Virus genome (UHGV): UHGV-0126185
Direction: 5' to 3' (one strand)
DNA from: a virus
DNA: 34,871 bases
The translations under genes and the position numbers were made by a program. Position 1 is the first letter of the stretch, and every line of letters starts with the position of its first letter. The notes under the pieces were generated by a model. The model was given only the letters and a program-made list of their open reading frames with translations, searched no databases and was not told the origin of the DNA. Shown piece after piece: positions 15,270 through 18,863 of this stretch.

Positions 15270-16376
15270 ATGGTCCGCTCTGTCAATGACCGCCTGCAGG
15301 ACGAGACCATAGCGCATGGCCTGTATGTGACCCGCTATGGTAATGGCGTCGCCCGGCGCATGGTGGCGCTGCTGAGTAAGATGGATAATGACCTGGCGGC
15401 CAGGCTGCTGGTGCTGCTGGATGGCAAGCGCGCAGACACCTACAGTGCCCGCCGCCTGGCTTCGCTGCTGGCTGGCGTACGCGACCTGAACCAACAGGCC
15501 TATGAGCCAGTTAACGATGCGCTGGCGCGGGAACTGAGGCGCTACGTTGAGTATGAGGCCGGGTATCAGTTGGACCTGTTCAGCAGCATCATTCCGAAGC
15601 AGATCCTCACTCACGTTCCGCTTCAGAGCATTGCCCCCGAGCAGGTATACGCAGCAGCAGTGGCACAGCCCTTCCAGGGGCGCCTGCTGAAGGAGTGGGG
15701 CCAGAAGCTTGAAGCCGATCGGCTGGACAAAATCACCAACGCTGTGCGCTCCGGTTTCCTCCAGGGTGAAACGGTAGAGCAGATTGTCCGGCGCGTCGCT
15801 GGCACGCCGAATCTCAACCGTGAAGATGGGGTGATTCACGCTTCCCGGCGCGACCTTGCTGTGGTGACCCGTACGGCAGTGAACCATATGGCCGCCACGG
15901 CGCGCCAGGAGTTCGCCCAGACCAACAGCGATATCGTGAAGGCCAAGCAGTGGTCCTCAACCCTGGATACGCATACCAGCCAGTGGTGCATCATCCGCGA
16001 CCGCAAGCTCTACACGCTCGACGGCAAGCCGCTGGGGCATGTGGTCCCGTACCTGCGCGGTCCCGGCAAAATCCACTTTTGCTGCCGCTCCTGCGAAATC
16101 CTGATCACTAAATCGTGGGAGGAAATGCAAATAGCCTCAGGCGAACTGAGCAACGCCACGCGCGCCTCAATGGACGGACAGGTGCCAGCGCATACCAGCT
16201 ATGCCGAATGGCTCGTCAGGCAGCCGTACGCACGGCAGGAACAGGTGCTGGGCGTTACTCGCGTGCGGATGCTACGCGACGGCAAAATCACGGTGCCGGA
16301 GATGTTTAACGATGCCGGGGAATTTCTCACTCTGGATGAACTGCGCCGCGTGGATGCGTCGGCGTTTGAGGGTTAG
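15270..16376 (+). CDS. head morphogenesis protein (Mu F-like / SPP1 gp7-like)
   Basis: 368 aa following portal; conserved central region (VTRTAVNHMAATARQEF...) as in Mu F-family minor head proteins. Confidence 0.7.
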   Translation: MVRSVNDRLQDETIAHGLYVTRYGNGVARRMVALLSKMDNDLAARLLVLLDGKRADTYSARRLASLLAGVRDLNQQAYEPVNDALARELRRYVEYEAGYQLDLFSSIIPKQILTHVPLQSIAPEQVYAAAVAQPFQGRLLKEWGQKLEADRLDKITNAVRSGFLQGETVEQIVRRVAGTPNLNREDGVIHASRRDLAVVTRTAVNHMAATARQEFAQTNSDIVKAKQWSSTLDTHTSQWCIIRDRKLYTLDGKPLGHVVPYLRGPGKIHFCCRSCEILITKSWEEMQIASGELSNATRASMDGQVPAHTSYAEWLVRQPYARQEQVLGVTRVRMLRDGKITVPEMFNDAGEFLTLDELRRVDASAFEG

Positions 16377-16378
16377 CC

Positions 16379-16522
16379 ATGCAAAATGAGAAAGGCAAAA
16401 CTATCACCCTGACAGAGGCTGAGCGCAAATTCATCATGATTGCGATGATTGCCTATACCTTATCTGGTGAGGCGTCAGAAGAAGACGCAAAAATCGCAGA
16501 GCAAATAATCAATAAGCTCTGA
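16379..16522 (+). CDS. small hypothetical protein (47 aa) not in the ORF track
   Basis: ATG at 16379 with gaggg RBS 7 nt upstream; protein-like translation MQNEKGKTITLTEAERKFIMIAMIAYTLSGEASEEDAKIAEQIINKL; followed by a GC hairpin and T-run. Confidence 0.3.
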   Translation: MQNEKGKTITLTEAERKFIMIAMIAYTLSGEASEEDAKIAEQIINKL

Positions 16523-16543: not shown

Positions 16544-16568
16544 GGCTGCCTTCGGGGGGCCTTTTTTA
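16544..16568 (+). terminator. putative intrinsic terminator
   Basis: GC-rich hairpin (ggctgcc ttcg gggggcc) followed by TTTTTT. Confidence 0.4.
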
Positions 16569-16648
16569 TGCCTGCCGCTAAGCGGATGCGACGCGGTGCC
16601 CGGGTCGGATGACCCATTACGTATGGCCGGAAGGCTGGAGCAAAAACA

Positions 16649-18593: not shown

Positions 18594-18863
18594 ATGGCCG
18601 GATTGACCAAAGAGCAGCGCGCGCAGCGTGAGGCTGAAAAGCTTGCGGCGAAGAACGGCGCTGAACATGCTCCTGCCCAGCAGGAACAGCAGCAGGAACA
18701 GCAGCAGGAACAGCAGCAGGAACAGCAGCAGGAACAGCAGGGTATTGAGCTGGTGTTCATGGTACGTGACACCCCAGAATTCCCTGGCGGCCCGCTGCGC
18801 GCAGATGTTCATTCTGATGAAGTGGATAACTGGCTGGCGCTGGACTGGCGTCTGGAGGAATAA
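18594..18863 (+). CDS. hypothetical head-module protein with (QQEQ)n repeat
   Basis: 89 aa; ggaggcccaATG RBS; contains a poly-(EQQQ) tract encoded by a perfect 12-bp tandem repeat. Confidence 0.5.
   Translation: MAGLTKEQRAQREAEKLAAKNGAEHAPAQQEQQQEQQQEQQQEQQQEQQGIELVFMVRDTPEFPGGPLRADVHSDEVDNWLALDWRLEE
18681..18740. repeat. perfect tandem repeat, 12 bp x 5 (caggaacagcag)
   Basis: Read directly: five consecutive identical 12-bp units, in frame, encoding QEQQ repeats. Confidence 0.9.

Follow-up and report, generated by a model that had tools for sequence, protein, structure and literature searches.

Does an open reading frame (ORF) of 47 codons, lying between two head-morphogenesis genes of a phage, encode a protein of its own, and if so, what is such a small gene doing there? 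The question is raised by the UHGV virus genome UHGV-0126185, a stretch of 34,871 nucleotides (nt) that is called the window below. The ORF, here named orf47, encodes 47 amino acids (aa) and follows the gene of a MuF-like head-morphogenesis protein (MuF); the next gene encodes a scaffold-like protein. Comparison of related loci indicates that orf47 is quite probably a real and translated accessory gene. The fuller description, a genuine, weakly constrained and lineage-restricted accessory gene carried as cargo in a slot of HK639-like temperate phages, is also probable.

The frame runs on the plus strand from the ATG at 16379 to the TGA at 16520-16522 and encodes MQNEKGKTITLTEAERKFIMIAMIAYTLSGEASEEDAKIAEQIINKL. 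The MuF gene ends with the stop codon TAG at 16374-16376, and two nucleotides (CC) separate this stop from the ATG of orf47. A plausible ribosome-binding site (RBS) and a start 2 nt after the upstream stop had been claimed for these coordinates in an earlier reading of the DNA, made from the letters only (the sequence-only reading), and all of these are present in the sequence. When the 167-nt segment was shuffled with its dinucleotides preserved, an ATG-initiated ORF of at least 47 codons appeared in 1.3% of the shuffles (P = 0.013), and an ORF of the same length also starting within the first 12 nt in 0.9%. The same reading had called the ORF unannotated. This has to be corrected, because an identical protein of Citrobacter freundii is on record as 'hypothetical protein' (MDU2488376.1, DAI78494.1) and the 47-aa (or 50-aa) ORF was called by gene callers in 16/16 loci fetched via orf47 homologs. 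A scan with the sigma-70 consensus, the only one used, found no sigma-70-like promoter upstream of orf47; the sole match (16409-16437, 9/12) lies inside orf47 and is within shuffle expectation.

The region bounded by the MuF stop and the start of the scaffold gene was surveyed in 79 IMG/VR loci picked only by scaffold similarity, the slot being anchored on these two points. The most frequent content was an ORF of 69 codons, orf69 (phrog_3540), present in 36 of the 79 loci. The slot was empty, with 123-125 nt, in 23/79 (~29%), and held orf47 in 9/79 and a 38-aa membrane peptide (tm38) in 4/79. A Tad2-like gene (PF11195, expect value (E) = 4.6e-20) together with orf69 was found in 3/79, and one locus each carried an HNH endonuclease (phrog_2340), orf69 together with tm38, a 41-aa ORF and an 83-aa ORF. 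Closely similar backbones bear at least seven alternative slot contents, or none, and empty, orf69, Tad2-like or tm38 slots are found on backbones as near to the window as the other orf47 loci are. The MuF-scaffold junction is a variable cargo slot and a case of ordinary phage mosaicism. Because the slot is empty in 23/79 of the relatives or filled with unrelated cargo, orf47 is not needed for head assembly.

The closest sequenced phage is HK639, with 91% identity in the flanks. HK639 and all the E. coli relatives match the window as two pieces with orf47 skipped, and orf47 is absent from most relatives, HK639 included. The slot of HK639 contains a 38-aa ORF, MPQIMVGLVSIALGLAAIVISSRSIYEMWRFMREQKNK, which is not annotated (L001 2080-2196; NC_016158 4786-4902). 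Over 19 residues its Kyte-Doolittle mean reaches 2.43, which marks a strong membrane-spanning segment, and at its end the stop codon runs into the foot of the annotated terminator. The product of orf69 is basic (net +8) and begins MRNDDFHCVGDG...; the ORF is located at 2054-2263 of the E. coli ET729 locus (L002) and occurs also in L003 and in 36 IMG/VR loci. In E. coli EC09 and others the slot contains a DUF2829 gene and the 69-aa ORF; the gene ahead of orf69, of 154 aa, is Tad2-like, that is, Thoeris anti-defence 2-like (EC09, L003 2079-2543; also L044, L075 and L080). Tad2/DUF2829 has been described as an anti-Thoeris protein (bioRxiv 10.1101/2023.05.01.538930). The longer slot of L029 (794 nt), from one viral contig, encodes a 178-aa endonuclease of phrog_2340 with Cys-rich and HNH-like motifs, possibly a selfish insertion of the homing type at this site.

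Slots with orf47 measure 271-272 nt. The inserted DNA, counted with one extra MuF codon, amounts to about 150 nt, of which orf47 makes up 144 nt (~96%). Downstream of orf47, the 21-nt spacer between its stop and a hairpin appears to be homologous to the spacer following the MuF stop in the empty slots, as judged by eye against the printed empty slots L024, L038, L055, L072 and L078. At the other end, MuF terminates with F-(E/Q/D)-stop in 23/23 empty slots (loci at the MuF stop, L022-L101), while an extra terminal G or E codon is present in 9/9 orf47, 36/36 orf69 and 2/4 tm38 loci. This codon builds the sequence GAGG(G/A) or AAAGG(G/A) 5-8 nt 5' of the cargo ATG. Such a codon, forming a Shine-Dalgarno (SD) motif, was found in 0/23 empty slots and only where cargo abuts. 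The remaining two tm38 loci have a G-rich purine stretch (GAGGG; GGGG) inside the slot, just 5' of the cargo ORF. In the window the last MuF sense codon is GGT at 16371-16373, and the terminal-codon site covers 16371-16376. Three unrelated cargo ORFs thus each arrive with an RBS, which is the best evidence for their translation.

The cargo differs from its surroundings also in base composition, the guanine-plus-cytosine (GC) fraction being 0.41 in the cargo, 0.61 in the MuF 3' end and 0.53 in the scaffold 5' end. Pooled Nei-Gojobori estimates across 14 distinct DNA variants of orf47 gave 0.125 synonymous differences per synonymous site (pS) and 0.054 non-synonymous differences per non-synonymous site (pN), with a ratio of non-synonymous to synonymous substitution (dN/dS) of 0.41. 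The synonymous divergence of orf47 is three to four times below that of the MuF gene (pS 0.45, dN/dS 0.058) and the scaffold gene (pS 0.34, dN/dS 0.085), which suggests that the cassette spread laterally in recent times. Among the orf47 loci, the median identity of the scaffold 5' end was 0.983 and that of the MuF 3' end 0.867. These values indicate a recombination joint where MuF meets the cargo, with the block of orf47, leader and scaffold having spread recently.

A word-indexed search recovered 12 homologous protein clusters (90%-identity) with 81-100% identity to orf47, all with Citrobacter as the source name. All the 12 are 47 aa long except one 50-aa allele, in which an in-frame 9-nt duplication adds the residues MIA. 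A genome scan with the alignment as query found orf47 also in Kluyvera and in Enterobacter soli, in the same position. The gene order portal (DUF4055), MuF, orf47, DUF6651 scaffold and capsid was kept in 16/16 loci fetched via orf47 homologs. All the distinct DNA variants of orf47 were intact (14/14), and these come from prophages of at least three genera (Citrobacter, Kluyvera and Enterobacter) with the position constant. In tblastn searches orf47 had no match in 50,697 phage records or 72,556 plasmids, and blastn of the orf47 cargo gave none in 5,426 complete E. coli genomes. Conservation of the frame across related phages, which the sequence-only reading had named as the check, was borne out in so far as the frame is conserved where the segment exists, but most relatives have other cargo or an empty slot.

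In the coding tests, the annotated frame of orf47 had the lowest dN/dS among the six frames, the other two plus-strand frames giving 1.45 and 0.77. Codons 11-30 carry four non-synonymous and six synonymous changes and the rest of orf47 26 and 10, respectively (counted from the substitution table), and the constraint is concentrated in residues 12-30. Taken on its own, the substitution pattern is no more than suggestive of coding. A comparison within the slot is provided by orf69 (pS 0.446, dN/dS 0.098), with 24/7/52 variable sites at the three codon positions and 22/22 distinct variants intact. It is missing from the RefSeq annotation of ET729 and yet clearly coding; because orf69 is unmistakably so, small ORFs in the slot can be real genes.

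Several observations weigh against orf47 as a functional gene. Its variable sites are distributed 10/12/16 over the codon positions, a weak asymmetry. The 46 inferred changes divide into 16 synonymous and 30 non-synonymous, with 10.9 ± 2.8 synonymous changes expected under the null (P = 0.056), and the probability that 46 random changes yield no stop is 0.15. The nucleotide diversity of orf47 (0.077) is near that of the adjacent non-coding leader (0.05), and part of its conservation may reflect youth or linkage. Purifying selection on orf47 is weak and statistically insecure. A profile search against 1.84 billion representative proteins found no homolog beyond the 50%-identity cluster of orf47 itself; the other matches were one frameshifted orf47 fragment and two repeat-protein artefacts. 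The frameshifted allele has lost one nucleotide, the G of codon 25, outside any homopolymer, and its product is 42 aa long (L102, 2001-2129; L103; L104). It occurs in at least five contigs, and the three shown are from separate runs (SRR18370000, SRR18370006 and SRR30722388). No family in Pfam, PHROGs, NCBIfam or PADLOC matched significantly either, and Foldseek found no structure with E < 1 in the PDB or BFVD, an outcome to be expected of a two-helix hairpin.

Much of this would be seen also if orf47 were a non-functional relic, or a chance frame in young inserted DNA, any peptide made from it being without a role. The dN/dS value, the codon-position counts and the two marginal probabilities are all consistent with such a frame, and the low synonymous divergence leaves little time for decay. 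The circulation of the frameshifted allele and the lack of relatives outside the cluster point in the same direction. Such a relic would, however, have to fill 144 of the ~150 inserted nucleotides, with a frame length reached by shuffled sequences at P ~0.01. It would also have remained intact in every variant across the three genera, the only length change among the 47- and 50-aa alleles being in frame. Further, the SD-forming codon goes together with cargo and is absent from all the empty slots, no other of the six frames has a dN/dS as low as the annotated one, and the non-synonymous changes avoid residues 12-30. A relic or chance frame is consequently considered unlikely. The sequence-only reading took orf47 for a small gene missed through a size cut-off, and this is probably right in view of the frame, the SD motif and the size of the insert, but the constraint is weaker than the word 'conserved' implies.

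If orf47 is a gene, its position suggests a part in head assembly, for example as a chaperone or adaptor between MuF or the portal and the scaffold, or as a virion component. It lies between two head-morphogenesis genes and is predicted to be translationally coupled to MuF and co-expressed late, and the median identity of the scaffold 5' end is 0.983 in orf47 loci and 0.89-0.92 in the other slot types. Co-inheritance of a block that spread recently accounts for this tie to the scaffold equally well. The relatives with an empty slot have near-identical MuF, scaffold and capsid genes, others carry unrelated cargo in its place, and the frameshifted allele persists, all of which make a head component very unlikely.

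The AlphaFold2 model of the orf47 product, based on an alignment of 13 sequences, has helices at residues 13-29 and 34-46, with a mean predicted local distance difference test score (pLDDT) of 77.6 and a predicted template modelling score (pTM) of 0.51. The sequence-only reading had described an amphipathic sequence. This holds for helix 2 (hydrophobic moment, muH, 0.49) but not for helix 1, which is hydrophobic on all sides and suggests, if the model is right, self-association or docking onto a partner. PDB sequence profiles matched orf47 only to designed helical proteins (E ≥ 0.0076). Three family matches below threshold were attributed to chance, the sequence being short and helical, and were rejected: DUF7853 (PF25251; 15.7 bits, E = 0.023, below the 27-bit gathering threshold), DUF1844, and the transmembrane Pfam model COX2-transmemb (E = 0.03). 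Similar sub-threshold matches to DUF7853 were given by 7 of 13 family members, the best with E = 0.017.

The hydrophobic stretch FIMIAMIAYTLSG and the weak COX2-transmemb match might also be taken to mean that orf47 is a small membrane peptide with a part in superinfection exclusion or the timing of lysis, comparable to the tm38 of HK639, as another cargo of the same slot clearly spans the membrane. The longest uncharged stretch of orf47 nevertheless extends over only 13 residues, and the highest Kyte-Doolittle mean over 19 residues is 0.79, well under the usual cut-off of 1.6. The rest of orf47 is highly charged, and no promoter was found for expression in the lysogen. A membrane peptide is on these grounds most improbable.

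Small ORFs directly downstream of muf genes are known as immunity genes of MuF polymorphic toxins, in which the muf gene follows a portal gene as it does here (Jamet et al. 2017, PMC5576092). In that survey small ORFs followed 89.4% of the MuF toxin genes and 25.5% of the short MuF genes, so that such a neighbour is found next to short forms as well. The C-terminal ~90 aa of the present MuF match a separate family, phrog_14819, which could be taken for a toxin domain with orf47 as its immunity protein. Unlike the MuF toxins, however, this MuF is a 368-aa short form with no recognizable toxin extension. Over the last 100 aa of the protein, identity to the window is 82-98% in all the slot types with a homologous MuF (87-95% in empty, 82-97% in orf69 and 90-92% in Tad2-like slots). 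As the C-terminus is the same whatever the cargo, there is no toxin-immunity co-variation, and 23 relatives would lack immunity. A toxin/immunity pair was therefore rejected, and an immunity function of orf47 is scarcely credible.

A leader peptide or attenuator was also rejected, since the stop of orf47 lies 21 nt before the hairpin, so that a terminating ribosome would not reach the stem, and a similar gap between the MuF stop and the hairpin in the printed empty slots means that orf47 would bring no new geometry.

The features of the slot and its flanks are listed in the table below.

Table. Positions of orf47, its signals and the neighbouring features in the window.
Feature	Start	End	Strand	Remarks
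MuF-like head-morphogenesis (minor head) gene, 368 aa	15270	16376	+	phrog_241 (E = 1.8e-157), PF04233 (E = 6.5e-7); left border of the slot
Shine-Dalgarno motif GAGGG of orf47	16368	16372	+	6 nt 5' of the ATG, within the last two codons of MuF; direct reading
orf47, slot cargo of this prophage	16379	16522	+	predicted acidic 47-aa helix-loop-helix, net charge -2
Spacer from orf47 stop to hairpin, 21 nt	16523	16543	+	right edge of the insertion, by reading
Terminator-like hairpin and T6	16544	16567	+	7-bp stem, TTCG loop, one G.G mismatch in the window; backbone
Non-coding leader of the scaffold gene	16568	16648	+	scaffold Shine-Dalgarno motif GGAG at 16637-16640; backbone element
Scaffold-like gene (DUF6651), 250 aa	16649	17401	+	PF20356 (E = 4.9e-68), phrog_784, phrog_206; right border of the slot
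Next gene	17418	18554		homolog annotated as P22-family major capsid protein in relatives

The hairpin has the arms GGCTGCC (16544-16550) and GGGGGCC (16555-16561) around the TTCG loop, with the T6 at 16562-16567. The sequence-only reading had noted this hairpin and T-run downstream of orf47, which are indeed present, and had counted them in favour of the gene. They do not carry that weight: because the T-run and the leader start are found in 78/79 related loci whatever the slot cargo, including the inspected empty slots (6/23), the terminator belongs to the backbone and is no support for orf47. Its stem pairs tolerate G-C, G-U and A-U exchanges across the relatives, and the same element is annotated as 'terminator' in the HK639 record.

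The leader following the hairpin varied little, 58 of the 82 alignment columns being invariant among 44 distinct sequences. Its nucleotide diversity was 0.05, whereas the genes on either side reach 0.34-0.45 in synonymous divergence. No credible Rfam match was obtained for the RNA, and the intergenic RNA folds no better than shuffles (z = 0.06). The leader possibly acts on scaffold expression, as a control or processing site, or else provides the homology on which cargo exchange is anchored.

The small gene at 18594-18863, immediately past the major capsid gene, contains a perfect 12-nt tandem repeat, CAGCAGGAACAG, present 5.2 times at 18678-18740 and encoding (QQEQ)n. In relatives the gene at the corresponding position encodes 61-93 aa, and its length may vary through the number of repeats.

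As an accessory cargo gene, orf47 would be transcribed together with the late virion-assembly operon, since no promoter of its own was found. It would be translated by ribosomes arriving from the MuF gene, or re-initiating after it, because its ATG lies 2 nt past the MuF stop and the SD motif is within the last MuF codons. The product would be an acidic helical hairpin with the nearly invariant hydrophobic first helix (residues 12-30) as its functional surface. It would most likely bind another protein or self-associate, and would be neither an enzyme nor a membrane-spanning peptide. In its likeliest role, orf47 would serve as an accessory tied to particular hosts or to conflict, for instance in counter-defence or by modulating a host factor, because the Tad2-like gene shares the slot and orf47 is restricted to prophages of Citrobacter, Kluyvera and Enterobacter. 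This functional assignment is drawn solely from the other slot occupants. Counter-defence genes are usually expressed early, whereas orf47 sits in a late operon, and a counter-defence role specifically is possible, with the balance clearly tilted against it.

The position and orientation of orf47 are the same as those of the Tad2-like (PF11195/DUF2829) genes of the E. coli relatives, from the MuF stop to the backbone terminator, but with its 47 aa and predicted all-helical structure it has no sequence or fold similarity to them, and the link is positional only. Similarly, it shares with orf69 and the tm38 of HK639 a start a few nucleotides past the MuF stop, an SD motif from the extra MuF codon and an end before the same terminator. 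The sequences are unrelated, however: the product of orf69 is basic and under strong purifying selection and that of tm38 membrane-spanning, while that of orf47 is acidic, soluble-looking and weakly constrained. Judged from its other occupants, the slot could be a dedicated swap site for conflict cargo and orf47 a counter-defence or host-takeover protein specific to the Citrobacter group, which seems rather improbable. A bolder version supposes that cargo made late and beside MuF would be packaged in the capsid and would enter the next host along with the DNA. Such packaging, if true, would account for the presence of anti-defence-type genes, the Tad2-like one among them, in a late structural operon.

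Morons, in the sense of Juhala and Hendrix, are extra genes inserted in late operons. As in the morons of lambdoid and P22-like phages (the 'ant moron', PMC2629481), orf47 occupies a fixed site, flanked by syntenic morphogenetic genes, at which it may also be absent or replaced by other genes; morphogenesis does not depend on it, and it differs from its neighbours in base composition. Unlike them, it has no promoter of its own that was found and is predicted to be coupled translationally to the upstream structural gene. The terminator downstream of it is a backbone element kept in empty slots, and the inserted unit is only 150 nt. According to the same paper, the P22-like phages examined there carry no other morons within their morphogenetic clusters (PMC2629481).

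The orf47 protein itself was already in the databases, and what is new here is the delineated cargo slot. By itself orf47 is a further phage gene among the many small accessory ones, with a 47-aa product that belongs to no known family, and its direct value is small. Several small genes of the slot have been left uncalled in reference annotations, and with its conserved flanks, the MuF end on one side and the terminator and ~80-nt leader on the other, the slot is usable to harvest candidate accessory or anti-defence genes from enterobacterial prophages. Without being a new kind of element, it is a modest extension of known mosaicism: HK639-like phages evidently tolerate a moron between the MuF and scaffold genes.

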